Assembly: GCA_026395895.1 (NCBI GenBank)
Contig: JAPLXV010000003.1
Span: forward strand, 1 to 56,600
Direction of reading: 5' to 3'
Source: Candidatus Nomurabacteria bacterium
GTDB taxonomy: Bacteria; Patescibacteriota; Minisyncoccia; Phycocordibacterales; UBA9973
Length of the DNA stretch: 56,600 nucleotides
Each line of letters opens with the position of its first letter. Position 1 is the first letter of the stretch. Shown here one piece after another: positions 1-52,171 of the stretch. Below the pieces are notes generated by a model. The model worked only from the letters and a program-made list of their open reading frames with translations, made no database searches and was not told where the DNA came from. Both the position numbers and the translations under genes were made by a program.

Positions 1-1506
1 AAAGAAGAAAAATCAATTTTTGCCAATACTAGAAATGCAGCAGCAGGAAGTTTGCGACAACTAGATCCTAAGTTAGCAGCTGAACGGGAGTTGGATTTTT
101 ATGCATATGATATAGCAGAAATATCCACTAAACAAAAATTTTTTACGCATTCAGAAAAACATGCATATCTTAAAAAACTCGGGTTTCAAATAGGTAATGA
201 TGAGGTTATTTGTAAAAATATAAAAGAAGTTATCTCTTTCATTAAAAATTTTGAAAAAATTAGGCCAGATTTTCCTTTTGGCACGGATGGCGTTGTAATA
301 TCTGTGGATGATTTAGAGTTACAAAAAACCTTAGGTGTTATCGGTAAGGCCCCTCGCTATATGGCTGCCTTTAAATATCCAGCTGAAAAAGCAACAACCA
401 TCGTAAAAAATATAAAAATAAATGTTGGGCGAACTGGAGTACTTACCCCGTTGGCAATTTTTGAGCCGACTTCTGTAGCGGGTTCTGTTGTATCCAAGGC
501 GACTCTTCACAATATGGATCAAATAGGAAGATTAGATTTAAGAATAGGCGATACAGTAGTAATTGAAAAAGCGGGAGATGTTATTCCTAAAGTAGTGGAA
601 GTTTTGACTCGTATGCGTACCGGCAAAGAAAAAAAATTTAAAATGGTTTTGAAATGTCCAGCTTGCGGGGGTAGGGTCGAAAAAAAAATCACCACCCCCA
701 ACCCCCTCCTCCATAAGGAGGGGGTGAAATCCTCCCCGCCTTTAGAAGGAGGGGACGGGAGGGGTGGTCTATCCGTCGCTTACTTTTGTATTAATCCTAG
801 ATGTCCAGCTAAAAATGAAAGATTTCTGGAACATTTTGTTTCTGCTTTTGAAATTTATGAATTGGGCCCAAAAATTTTGAGACGATTCAAAGATGAAGGA
901 TTAATTACAGATGCAGCTGATATTTTTACCCTCACCAAGGAAGATATTGCACCCTTGGAGCGTTTTGGTGAAAAAAGTGCAGAAAATATTATTAAGGAAA
1001 TAAAATTAAAAAAGAAAATTTCATTTTCTAAATTTCTTTGGGCCTTGGGAATTTTGCATGTAGGGGAAGAAACGGCTCGAGATTTGGCTATGAATTTTGG
1101 CACAATCTCAAAATTAAAGAAAGCAACACTTGAAGAAATAAATGAAATAGAAAATATCGGGCCGGCCGTTTCTAAAAGCGTTTATAGCTATTTTAAAGAT
1201 AAAAGCAATTTACTTTTTATAGAAAAATTATTGAGAAATGGTGTGCTAATAGAAAGCTATAAACTAAAAGCTATAAGCTATAAGCTATCAGGAATGATTG
1301 TTGTTTTAACAGGTACACTTTCTCAAATGTCTCGCGAGCTGGCTAAAGAAAAAATTATTTCTTTGGGTGGAAAAGTATCAGGTTCTGTTTCAAAAAATAC
1401 TTCTTTTGTTGTAGCTGGAGAAGAGTCTGGTTCAAAGTTGAAAAATGCTGAAAAATTAGGTATAAAAATAATCCACGAGAAAGAATTTTTAGATATGATA
1501 CAATAG
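1..1506 (+). CDS. ligA: NAD-dependent DNA ligase LigA, 5' end cut by window edge
   Basis: Frame 1 is open from base 1 ([16 protein letters not shown]). It has a 4-Cys zinc finger (CPACGG...CINPRCPAK), an HhH region and a C-terminal BRCT (VVLTGTL...[12 protein letters not shown]). Stop TAG at 1504-1506. Confidence 0.95.
691..768 (+). repeat. GC-rich nested palindromic module inside the ligA zinc finger (family 3, CCTCC/GGAGG type)
   Basis: ACCACCCC 691-698 pairs with GGGGTGGT 761-768. Inner hairpin CCCCCTCCT 702-710 / AGGAGGGGG 716-724. It encodes [26 protein letters not shown] between the two Cys pairs. Confidence 0.8.
1255..1288 (+). repeat. AT-rich AGCT-type repeat in frame in ligA (encodes [12 protein letters not shown])
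   Basis: AGCTATAAACTAAAAGCTATAAGCTATAAGCTAT. A near-identical AAGCTATAAACTATAAGCT lies in the intergenic region at 24521-24542. Confidence 0.6.
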
Positions 1507-1512
1507 AAATCC

Positions 1513-2037
1513 ATGCTTAATAAATTCAAAATTTTTACTGTTTTTATTGGCTGTCTATTATTTAGATTGCTCCCTTTAAGAGCACCTAATGTGGAGCCGA
1601 TAATGGCTTCTATTATGCCCCTAGGACGCAAATTTGGAGCCTTGACGGGTTTTTTATTTGGCTTCCTATCTATTATTATCTATGATCTTTTTACTCATTT
1701 TGGGGCTTGGACTTGGACGGTATCCATAACCTATGGGCTTGTTGGAATAGCTTCTTTTTTTTATTTTAAAAGGTTTAAATCTTCAGCTTTTAACTTTGCA
1801 GTTTTCGCATTTTTTGCCACCATAATTTTTGATTTAATAACTGGAGTTTTATTTGCTCCAATGTTTGGGCAAACTATGCTTAATGCTTTAGTTATGCAAA
1901 TTCCTTTTACTGCCCTGCACCTAGCAGGGAATATTGGTTTTGCACTTACTTTAAGTCCGCTTATAAACAAGTGGCTTGCGTCCGAACAATTTTTTGCACT
2001 AAAAACAAGTCCCTCATTGTCAGGAGCAAAAATTTAA
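1513..2037 (+). CDS. Polytopic membrane protein of unknown function (weak DUF6580 / ECF S-component-like N-terminal motif)
   Basis: 174 aa ORF, hydrophobic throughout, with an RLLPLRAPNVEPIMA motif near the N-terminus. It lies 6 nt after ligA. Confidence 0.7.
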   Translation: MLNKFKIFTVFIGCLLFRLLPLRAPNVEPIMASIMPLGRKFGALTGFLFGFLSIIIYDLFTHFGAWTWTVSITYGLVGIASFFYFKRFKSSAFNFAVFAFFATIIFDLITGVLFAPMFGQTMLNALVMQIPFTALHLAGNIGFALTLSPLINKWLASEQFFALKTSPSLSGAKI

Positions 2038-51080: not shown

Positions 51081-51097
51081 ATTATTAAAAAACATTT

Positions 51098-52171
51098 ATG
51101 CAAAAAACATACACATTTCATGTAAACGGTATGCACTGTAACGCGTGTGTAGTATTAACCGAAAGCGAACTTTCTGAAGTGTCTGGGATTTCTGGTGTTA
51201 AAGCATCACTGAATGATTTTAGTGTTGAGGTAACAGGGGATTTTTCCGCCAGAGGCGGATCCGCCTCTGGCGGAGGAGATACACCAGAAGCTGTGGCTGA
51301 ATATTTATCTACAGTATTAAAACCACATGGTTATACGCTTTCGCTTCAAAAGGAAGAACATTTGGTTAAATGGTCTGATTTTCGCATTGCTTTGCCGATT
51401 GCCGTCGGTTTTGTTTTTGTGTTTTTTATTTTACAAAAACTTGGCATTGTAAATTTAATAAATGTGTCAAAAGTCAATTATGGAACTGCTTTTATTATTG
51501 GTCTTGTTGCTTCTGTTTCTACATGTATGGCGGTAGTTGGTGGTTTGGTTCTTTCTATGTCGGCAAATTTTGCTAAAGAAAACGACCCTTCGATTTCTCT
51601 CAGGGCAAGCAATATGCGACCGCAAATTTTATTTCATATTGGCCGGCTCGCATCGTTTTTTATTCTTGGTGGAGTAATCGGGGCACTTGGTTCGACATTT
51701 CAACTTGGGACAATTGGCACCTTTATTCTTAGTTTTATTGTGGCAATTGTTCTACTTATTCTCGGTATTAATCTTTTAGATGTTTTTCCTTGGGCAAAAA
51801 AACTTCAACCAACTATTCCAAGTTTTATTGGTAAACGTGTTCATGGTCTAAAAAATATTAATCATACCCTTACTCCTCTTTTGGTTGGTGTTGCCACTTT
51901 CTTTTTGCCTTGCGGTTTTACTCAATCAATGCAAATATATACTTTAACTACTGGAAGTTTTTTGACTGGATCTTTAATCATGTTTTCATTTGCTCTTGGA
52001 ACACTTCCAGTATTATCACTTTTAAGTTTTAGTTCATTGGGGATACATAAAAAAGCGCAGTCCGGAATTTTTTTCAAAACAGCTGGTCTTATTGTGATAT
52101 TTTTTGGAATCTTTAATCTAATCAATGCTTTGGTCGGCGCTGGAATTATTCCTCCAATTTTTAATTTTTAA
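51098..52171 (+). CDS. HMA domain fused to a DsbD_2/TauE-like permease
   Basis: N-terminal NGMHCNACV. The membrane domain has VSTCMAVVGG and FFLPCGFTQSMQIY. Confidence 0.8.
   Translation: MQKTYTFHVNGMHCNACVVLTESELSEVSGISGVKASLNDFSVEVTGDFSARGGSASGGGDTPEAVAEYLSTVLKPHGYTLSLQKEEHLVKWSDFRIALPIAVGFVFVFFILQKLGIVNLINVSKVNYGTAFIIGLVASVSTCMAVVGGLVLSMSANFAKENDPSISLRASNMRPQILFHIGRLASFFILGGVIGALGSTFQLGTIGTFILSFIVAIVLLILGINLLDVFPWAKKLQPTIPSFIGKRVHGLKNINHTLTPLLVGVATFFLPCGFTQSMQIYTLTTGSFLTGSLIMFSFALGTLPVLSLLSFSSLGIHKKAQSGIFFKTAGLIVIFFGIFNLINALVGAGIIPPIFNF
51245..51274 (+). repeat. Perfect 30 nt palindrome in frame in the HMA domain (family 2)
   Basis: TCCGCC-AGA-GGCGGA, then TCCGCC-TCT-GGCGGA. Codon-aligned; encodes SARGGSASGG. 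Confidence 0.85.
51584..51610 (+). repeat. Family 4 GC-rich module in frame in the permease domain
   Basis: GACCCTTCGATTTCTCTCAGGGCAAGC encodes DPSISLRAS. It is related to 36223-36248 in dnaG. Confidence 0.6.

Follow-up and report, generated by a model that had tools for sequence, protein, structure and literature searches.

The 56.6-kb Candidatus Nomurabacteria contig analysed here (called the window, at its full length of 56,600 nucleotides) has a GC content of 34% and is about 85% coding, and it contains about 16 GC-rich modules of 18–117 nt, 14 of which lie inside intact open reading frames (ORFs). We think it likely that these modules belong to several families of small (~20–120 nt) mobile elements, GC-rich, hairpin-forming and non-autonomous, that occur widely among Patescibacteria, the bacteria also designated Candidate Phyla Radiation (CPR), to which Nomurabacteria belong. 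The modules occur at a density of about 1 per 3.5 kb. Pfam assigned the host genes as encoding LigA (5'-truncated), PheT, GyrB, an SMC-like ATPase, RNase R and TrmD, and also recognized a MazF-like toxin, DnaG, a P-type ATPase and an HMA-DsbD_2 protein in the window, while RpoB was identified through the Pfam families of its orthologue in the relative L002. When perfect GC-rich hairpins (stem of at least 7 bp with at least 5 G/C pairs) were searched for, 12 loci were found in the window, compared with 0–1 in shuffled sequences, and the strongest structures detected by sliding-window folding fell at the same sites. An Rfam scan of the whole window returned two tRNAs and nothing else. An earlier note on this DNA had listed 13 in-gene hairpin modules in four families. 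Eleven of the 13 are strong hairpins, but the second modules of dnaG and of the HMA gene are not (z from about 0 to +1), and we distinguished at least five families (A–E).

As the note had also said, no module breaks a reading frame: each in-gene module is open in the frame of its host, where it encodes a peptide rich in Gly, Pro, Ser, Ala, Arg, Glu and Lys (for example GGSASGG or SRRPLGPGSRPK). Several modules are open in all six frames because they are GC-rich. The ligA module and the one at site 2 of rnr, the RNase R gene, are open in only one sense frame, which indicates that the frame filter is real. The frame constraint suggests that the modules are translated. There is practically no chance that they result from faulty assembly or binning, through chimeric joins or foreign GC-rich reads, an idea that has the sharp change in composition for it and nothing further. 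An independent assembly, L001 (Logan SRR20698638), was identical at the two modules compared (rnr site 2 and an intergenic one), so that the modules are not an assembly artefact; the ORFs are intact and the same elements were found in hundreds of contigs from many studies.

Comparison with relatives indicated that the segments are insertions. L002 is syntenic with the window, with conserved gene order from dnaG to pheT and protein identities of 80–93%. Differences of at least 6 codons between the two in smc, dnaG, gyrB, trmD, rpoB and rnr were nearly all GC-rich modules (GC 0.46–0.78), apart from a small number of AT-rich ones in the coiled coil of SMC. The rnr gene was the most telling. In its S1 domain, the window contains the sequence TCCCGACGCCCTTTGGGGCCGGGATCCCGACCGAAAGCGTCGGGG, read as SRRPLGPGSRPKASG, which is missing at that position in L002. 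The L002 gene carries GTCCCGACGCCCTTCGGGGCCGGGATCCCGACCGCAAGCGTCGGG about 115 codons upstream, in another frame and read as VPTPFGAGIPTASVG, at a position that is empty in the window. Each of these two differences is exactly 45 nt long. The multiple-of-three lengths claimed by the note are thus exact for this 45-nt element, with two filled/empty pairs, and elsewhere follow from the intact ORFs.

The first of these segments, rnr site 3 (21575–21619, reverse strand), is a 45-nt family A double hairpin that makes the window protein exactly 15 codons longer than those of L002, L003 and Bacillus subtilis. Site 2 (22802–22918, reverse strand), located directly before HIADVS, consists of an outer hairpin CCCCCTCTCCTTAA...TTAAGGAGAGGGGG, the loop of which holds a nested two-hairpin element of 66 nt (22829–22894); the whole folds with a minimum free energy (MFE) of -70 kcal/mol (z -7.6). 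The outer hairpin is present alone in L003, L004 and several orthologues, the window having 22 extra codons inside it, and in RNase R orthologues from other genomes site 2 is occupied by other families. Site 1 (23460–23518, reverse strand), near the N-terminus, is a 57-nt family A double hairpin (VPTPNGVGIPTSDRNQNVG) with an extended stem in its second hairpin; there is none in L002 and a shorter one in L003. Among 29 RNase R orthologues (72–91% identical to the window protein over aligned positions), we counted 17 minority insert blocks, in which Gly, Ala, Arg and Pro together made up 0.42 of the residues, compared with 0.20 in the core. In the structure of B. subtilis RNase R (8CDU), the segments of sites 2 and 3 are missing, with about 6 residues against the window's 39 at the former and a clean 15-residue gap at the latter. 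An AlphaFold model of RNase R, made with 29 close sequences, was poor (mean predicted local distance difference test, pLDDT, 54), only its N-terminal and S1 regions being usable; in these, the inserts (residues 31–50 and 664–676) were modeled as low-confidence coil between confident strands.

Similar variation was found in LigA. The window module (691–771, forward strand; family C) consists of two GC-rich hairpins closed by ACCACCCC/GGGGTGGT (MFE -50 kcal/mol, z -8) and encodes a 27-residue peptide placed between the two pairs of Cys in the zinc finger. Across 60 LigA orthologues, this loop either had no insert or held the window peptide or another from a set of at least four unrelated ones. 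The zinc-finger domain of the window LigA falls below the Pfam threshold (22.2 vs 25.8 bits), and a precomputed Pfam zinc-finger match exists for some of the orthologues only. Partial DNA matches to the module were found in L081, L090 and L108. The loop as a whole (window 664–810; proteins P0121–P0180) is an insertion hotspot.

Copies of the motifs were found in further genes and genomes, where the frame can differ and the orientation is at times reversed. Other genomes have the same peptides in different proteins (PARNATHSVAGG in RNase R, PARNASHSDAGG in LigA), and inserts of the NHHPALKGTPPQQGGE type occur in RNase R as well as in LigA. SMC orthologues from three other genomes carry family A at about the window's site but in another frame, and family D lies in pheT, in trmD and, inverted, in the rnr gene of L005, which represent independent events. 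Some sites are hotspots taken by different families, and one insertion is nested. Template switching can generate and perfect palindromes, and the gyrB, MazF and nusB modules lack detectable relatives, so we considered that each module might have arisen locally in its gene, by slippage, quasi-palindrome template switching or GC-biased repair, the likeness between them being due to convergence. We regard this as very improbable, since sequences of 45–57 nt are at least 90% identical in unrelated genes and genomes, in differing frames and orientations, and since hundreds of family A copies have one architecture. For families A, B, D and E, a local origin is already contradicted.

Family A consists of two hairpins of the form YCCCGAC...GTCGGGR in tandem. 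We scanned one genome per species with a pattern specifying 20 bases and found at least 119 matching stretches in these representative genomes, nearly all of them in Patescibacteria of several classes; the hosts listed were Nomura-, Wolfe-, Zambryski-, Lipton-, Kaiser-, Adler- and Taylorbacteria, Paceibacteria, Minisyncoccia and Saccharibacteria. A small number of matches, in very GC-rich Actinomycetota and in other GC-rich genomes, came without the remainder of the element and seem fortuitous. In 87 distinct copies, the first hairpin was 97% paired and all three of its variable pairs covaried, one of them displaying the four Watson–Crick types (C-G 47, G-C 22, A-U 10, U-A 5). Changes on both sides of the stem amounted to 68 cells, compared with 19.8 ± 3.0 in shuffled sets (0 of 500 reaching the observed value), and the signal collapsed in slid controls. 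The compensatory stem changes reported in the note are thus formally established for family A. In the second hairpin, the stem is kept while the loops, or extra stems, are of unrelated sequence. Wobble-type mismatches were about equally frequent on both strands (count from tallies), and therefore give no pointer to a structure acting only as RNA.

The bases directly upstream of family A are (A/T)-A-(G/A), the in-gene copies (defined as those with a spanning ORF of at least 180 amino acids) carrying AAG or AAA; on the 3' side, the flank is AAA or AAG in genes and CTCAG in tRNA contexts. In-gene copies were found in 43 unrelated clusters of host proteins, 39 in sense and 5 in antisense orientation (p = 1.4e-7). 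They used the three reading phases in a ratio of 29/9/3 (71, 22 and 7%). In the coding DNA of the window, the G of AAG is the first base of a codon in 66% of cases, AAG is itself the codon in 18% and the G is the second base in 17%; for AAGRA, the same phases account for 70, 20 and 10%. The observed phases match those of AAG, as expected if insertion takes place directly 3' of this motif. Selection on the encoded peptide was considered as the origin of the frame and orientation bias and rejected, because the antisense frames would yield equally bland peptides (our own translation) and because the AAG phases predict the frames. Purine-rich targets are in excess on the coding strand (2.6:1 for AAGAAA, 6:1 for GAAGAA), and this strand asymmetry accounts for some of the orientation bias and perhaps for the whole of it. 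The placement of modules in exposed linkers would likewise follow from a Lys/Glu-rich target.

These data bear on the idea that the hairpins are features of the host, kept for mRNA stability, for ribosome pausing between domains, as sites on DNA or RNA to which a protein binds or as flexible protein linkers, and spread by recombination between genomes. It would fit with the maintenance of stem covariation across the phylum, with the occupation of some sites in distant orthologues (e.g., rnr site 3 and the LigA loop) and with the almost constant Gly/Ser/Ala frame of family B. We nevertheless consider it unlikely: inserts are missing from the same essential genes of close relatives, one site can be taken by different unrelated families, the hosts are 43 unrelated proteins, the target motif predicts frame use without selection on the peptide, and the near-equality of wobble mismatches on the two strands gives no sign of an RNA-only structure.

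The note had asked for counts of genic and intergenic copies and for the distribution of lengths modulo 3. A 45-nt class (core of 43 nt) comprised 51 of 69 in-gene family A copies but only 4 of 31 intergenic ones (Fisher p = 1e-8), the latter having mostly a core of 42 or 41 nt, i.e., 1–2 nt shorter. The contrast fits with a frame filter, but it is confounded, as the in-gene and intergenic sets are different subfamilies. It also argues against the possibility that the segments are not translated at all, being cut out of the mRNA or bypassed during translation as in Magnusiomyces mitochondria or T4 gene 60, because neither removal nor bypass would need such a length class. The modules do form very stable hairpins within coding regions, and a preprint describes mobile bypass elements elsewhere (bioRxiv 10.1101/2022.08.31.505936). 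Yet all in-gene copies are in frame and stop-free in the frame used, several having stops in other frames, and we noticed neither splice-like motifs nor pairs of take-off and landing codons, no systematic search having been made. Removal or bypass appears very improbable to us.

Outside genes, family A has another context. Of the ~31 copies between genes, at least 16 sit within a partly duplicated tRNA gene 5' end. Such a locus consists of nucleotides 1–10 of the tRNA (ending in TAG), the double hairpin, CTCAG... (nucleotides 11–20), a spacer of 10–35 nt and then an intact tRNA gene of the same kind. In five loci, the spacer holds an ORF of 86 amino acids that corresponds to a GIY-YIG catalytic domain (Pfam PF01541, E = 1.5e-16). 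With this protein as the sole starting point, we then retrieved 80 of its metagenome relatives, which number at least 343. An A-type double hairpin was present no more than 110 nt upstream in 74 of 78 GIY-YIG loci, and in 65 of 74 a tRNA gene on the same strand started within -15 to +80 nt of the end of the ORF (Asn 25, Lys 12, Ile 8, Phe 7, Thr 7, and others). The first 10 nt of the tRNA were repeated upstream of the hairpins in 53 of 65. In some tRNA-Thr cases, the hairpins follow nucleotide 15 (TAGCTCAG|...|TTGGTAG); L029 has two successive partial tRNA duplicates, and in L039 the stop codon of the ORF, TAG, is formed by nucleotides 8–10 of the tRNA. (The tRNA and cassette loci are L010, L026, L027, L029, L030, L039, L040, L044, L058–L060, L063, L069, L070, L074, L083, L094, L115 and L127–L206.) The double hairpin of family A thus forms an integral part, on the 5' side, of a GIY-YIG cassette that targets tRNA genes, and the intergenic hairpin-only copies look like ORF-less derivatives of this cassette. 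The TAG| junction of the tRNA copies is the same as the AAG| junction in genes.

We propose the following scheme for the mobile elements. An AT-rich, ~85% coding genome would receive insertions, most of which would land in genes because so much of the genome is coding. Family A would insert directly 3' of (A/T)AG, in an orientation fixed relative to this motif. Purifying selection would then remove the copies that cause a frameshift, introduce a stop codon or disturb the fold, and the survivors would be those of multiple-of-three length in loops, linkers and termini, where they would be read through as Gly/Pro/Ser/Ala/Arg-rich peptides. Compensatory changes maintain the stems, and hairpins undergo exchange, extension and nesting, so that the elements are modular. 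We infer from sequence comparison that the modules transpose and that the in-gene copies descend from the cassette, and the GIY-YIG endonuclease is the only candidate mobilizer that we have seen. It is conceivable, though doubtful in our opinion, that there is a single phylum-wide system, in which an autonomous tRNA-targeting GIY-YIG homing cassette is fronted by the 42–45-nt double hairpin and in which the same endonuclease, or the repair it provokes, seeds the hairpin 3' of AAG in coding sequences.

Several observations weigh against the proposal of mobile elements. We saw no transposition event, no excision footprint and no filled/empty polymorphism within a population, and three filled/empty pairs showed no target-site duplication beyond A-runs. 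The window contains no GIY-YIG homologue and no tRNA-linked copy, neither of its two tRNA genes having a cassette; the putative link between in-gene copies and the cassette is the hairpin sequence and the AG junction that they share, and nothing else. The orientation bias (~8:1) exceeds the 2–2.6:1 asymmetry of simple AAG-type motifs (p = 0.011 against 2.6:1). The copies in the window are old, those of family A in smc and rnr being 80% identical, and the gyrB, MazF and family C dnaG modules have few or no DNA relatives in the fetched loci. Other vehicles did not emerge either. A tblastn search of ~1 Mb around the elements with approximate IS608/IS200 TnpA queries, a weak test for a Y1 transposase of the RAYT type (the type that mobilizes repetitive extragenic palindromes, REPs), gave no match. 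A phage vector was not supported, as viral contigs gave 0 matches for family A and 2 for family B.

The other families were studied in the loci (~1.02 Mb) that had been fetched for family A, which also hold B, D, E and pieces of C. Family B has the layout TCCGCCNNNGGCGGA, two in tandem, and was found in 13 copies, 12 of them in the frame SAxGGSASGG. Family C is a loose CCCCTCC/GGAGGGG group; a regular expression for CCCCTCC-type hairpins, which was too strict, found only 2 copies. Family D has three hairpins and terminates in CACCCCTCAAGAGGGGAA. Family E is a GC-rich repeat that is not palindromic (CCTTCGACAAGCTCAGGGCA) and was found in 10 copies in several unrelated proteins, 8 of them in the DPSTSSGQA frame, LRQAQGK and FDKLRV being encoded once each (window 36223–36249 and, loosely, 51587–51613; L023, L027, L040, L041, L045, L068, L086, L091, L108). 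In families A and B, GGATCC joins the two hairpins (GTCGGGATCCCGAC, GGCGGATCCGCC; e.g., window 23486–23499 and 51254–51265), so that the overall layout is common to both despite different stems.

We compared the modules with known systems. Rickettsia palindromic elements (RPEs) are about 100–150 bp long. The RPEs and the coding palindromic repeats of Wolbachia are in-frame palindromes in functional genes (Ogata, Claverie and co-workers, as cited in PMC3733652). The likeness, which the earlier note had pointed out, lies in the presence of repeated palindromes in frame in functional, often essential, genes of a small genome, with non-coding copies as well and with intact host proteins, and the tests that might have spoken against RPE-like behaviour came out in its favour. 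In-frame palindromes in functional ORFs were indeed found (14 modules in intact ORFs), but neither the length nor a Rickettsiales host; the likeness is one of behaviour. The present modules are far shorter (18–117 nt), strongly GC-rich in an AT-rich genome and divided into many modular families; they span a phylum rather than one genus, have an (A/T)AG junction and include one family tied to a GIY-YIG/tRNA cassette.

GC clusters of mitochondria offer another parallel, one that shows similar behaviour rather than common descent. We know of no evident sequence similarity to the consensus of the yeast clusters. The yeast element GC42, a hairpin of 42 nt, targets AG; its stems are conserved, its loops vary and its units merge and shuffle. 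Its mobility was deduced from presence and absence, and the clusters are organellar and mostly intergenic (PMC4478555). The modules resemble it in being GC-rich hairpins of ~42 nt (core of 41–43 nt here) in an AT-rich compact genome, with AG upstream, conserved stems and variable loops. Family A also has its architecture in common with double-hairpin elements from the mitochondria of Allomyces (Paquin et al. 2000, as cited in PMC4478555). The modules differ by their host, a bacterial phylum, by the location in genes of most of the copies seen and by the lack of an AG duplication at the 3' junction.

REPs, which include intragenic GTAG/CGTC-tagged ones occasionally found inside replication and repair genes (PMC3733652), are, like the modules, imperfect GC-rich palindromes of 20–40 nt that are often in tandem, occur in many copies and are orientation-specific relative to a short flanking motif. 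Most of the present copies were seen in genes, however, and not between them. We examined whether the NTAG upstream of intergenic family A might be a GTAG tag and rejected this, because NTAG is nucleotides 7–10 of the tRNA; the CGTC inside the stem GCGTCGGG proves nothing either way. The modules do not fit the definitions of the RPE or REP/RAYT families. Miniature inverted-repeat transposable elements combine terminal inverted repeats with a target-site duplication; here, there is terminal complementarity in the ligA module (ACCACCCC/GGGGTGGT) and in the Y...R closing pair of family A, and the three filled/empty pairs had no duplication beyond A-runs.

For the cassette, the closest parallel is SegB of phage T4, a free-standing GIY-YIG endonuclease in a tRNA gene cluster (PMC2330249). 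In both cases a small GIY-YIG gene adjoins tRNA genes, and cleavage in the tRNA region would plausibly drive its inheritance. The cassette differs in having a cellular host, a conserved double hairpin, a duplicated tRNA 5' end, ORF-less derivatives and hairpin-only copies in protein genes. A catalytic domain at a conserved target gene was found in other genomes and not in the window. GIY-YIG genes are known in CPR rRNA insertions, from a paper that, by term counts, mentions neither tRNA nor palindromes (PMC11270868). Our searches of the open-access literature yielded no account of in-frame hairpin elements in Patescibacteria, nor of this tRNA cassette there, and the phenomenon, which is phylum-wide, has apparently gone undescribed.

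The remaining modules of the window are all on the forward strand, except one that is intergenic and has no assigned strand. The pheT module (11185–11241; family D, ~57 nt) encodes EGGGGVFHPAFGTPQEGN directly N-terminal to the FDX-ACB domain as delimited by Pfam; it is 91% identical over 57 nt to the copy inside the RNase R gene of L005, in opposite orientation, and its final 22 nt are identical to 24809–24830 in trmD. The trmD module (24786–24830) also belongs to family D, with the first hairpin apparently missing (STLSRKRVTPQEGNK); it is an indel compared with L002, L003 and L005 and is 93% identical to L087 over 44 nt. A GC spike in trmD at 24699–24749 was rejected as a module, because it corresponds to the conserved catalytic YGGGxGM motif. 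The gyrB module (13347–13391), between the Toprim and C-terminal domains, comprises the hairpin CCTCCCCCTTAGTAAGGGGGAGG plus flanks and encodes PLPDLPLSKGEEKGG; it has a perfect 10-bp stem (MFE -25.5, z -5.2), is an indel compared with L002 and has no close DNA relative among the fetched loci. A small GC-rich hairpin in a nusB-NUDIX ORF (16315–16335; PARFSGG), which the note had not listed, is an insertion of 7 residues compared with L003 (GC 0.71, z -2.6) and was assigned to none of the families. The smc module (19138–19194) is a 57-nt double hairpin (APTLEEVGVPTPDEDQDVG) that fits the family A pattern (MFE -38.9, z -6.9) and is the copy 80% identical to rnr site 1. The SMC-like protein itself (17419–19566) is short, 715 residues, and its AT-rich coiled-coil indels of 26–32 codons compared with L002 and L003 are ordinary.

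Between rpsP and a KH-domain gene lies the intergenic module, a degenerate family B palindrome (24045–24075; MFE -20 to -22), a similar GGCTGATCCGCC...GGCGGAAAAAA being present in L179. The single hairpin at the 3' end of the MazF-like ORF (25667–25684; GGACCCCTTTCGGGGTCC) has a 7-bp stem, no relative across ~1 Mb of fetched loci and no assigned family. The rpoB module (28392–28427) is a family B variant (SAKGGQASGLEN) with two tandem hairpins, an indel compared with L002 and 92% identical to L087 over 39 nt. In dnaG, module 1 (36067–36135; family C-like) encodes a 23-residue peptide that splits the DNAG_N domain, which Pfam matches as two stretches; it is an 18-codon indel compared with L002 (MFE -48.7, z -7.4). 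Module 2 (36223–36249), belonging to family E (DPSTSSGQA), is a recurring GC-rich repeat rather than a hairpin (fold z +1.0) and an 8-codon indel compared with L002. Module 1 of the HMA-DsbD_2 gene (51245–51274) is a perfect 30-nt palindrome of family B, TCCGCCAGAGGCGGATCCGCCTCTGGCGGA, with a 13-bp stem; it encodes SARGGSASGG and splits the HMA domain, the Pfam match to which ends at residue 50. Module 2 (51587–51613; PSISLRASN) is a weak assignment to family E, by likeness by eye to CCTTCGA...CTCAGGGCA; it has no BLAST relatives in the fetched loci and no hairpin.

The window also contains other repeats. A probable integrated element (1961–6277) adjoins a tRNA-Ser gene (2054–2141), and the GC content rises there to 0.43. 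It encodes a large serine recombinase (Resolvase, Recombinase and Zn_ribbon_recom domains; ORF 1961–3649, reverse strand), the open frame of which extends over the tRNA-Ser gene. Inverted repeats of 232 nt (3785–4016 and 6046–6277; 98% complementary) flank three ORFs without Pfam matches (4330–6040) and hold GC-rich hairpins of their own (3935–3977 and 6085–6127); another inverted repeat, of 120 nt and 74%, is found at 2138–2257 and 3671–3790. A 60-nt direct repeat, 85% identical (6898–6957 and 27720–27779), ends at the ATG of two unrelated genes, ORF 6952 and rpoB (27774). Its 21-nt core, ATTTAACAGGGTGATGATTTT, is exact in both copies, which is not expected by chance, and is found in none of the 206 fetched loci; the repeat may be a shared leader or promoter element.

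Patescibacterial genomes are among the smallest and most streamlined of all bacteria, yet their core replication, transcription and translation genes would carry selfish hairpin DNA, and a phenomenon of Rickettsia and of mitochondrial GC clusters would be extended to a whole bacterial phylum. The modules supply a concrete origin for the many insertions and length differences of CPR proteins that have had no explanation, and they may distort alignments, domain detection and phylogenies, as illustrated by the LigA zinc finger and the DNAG_N domain. The (A/T)AG junction and the GIY-YIG/tRNA cassette open the movement of mini-palindromes to experimental test. If the single homing system evoked above were true, homing-endonuclease debris would be a main origin of insertions in loops, and of variation in length, among the essential proteins that these minimal bacteria have.

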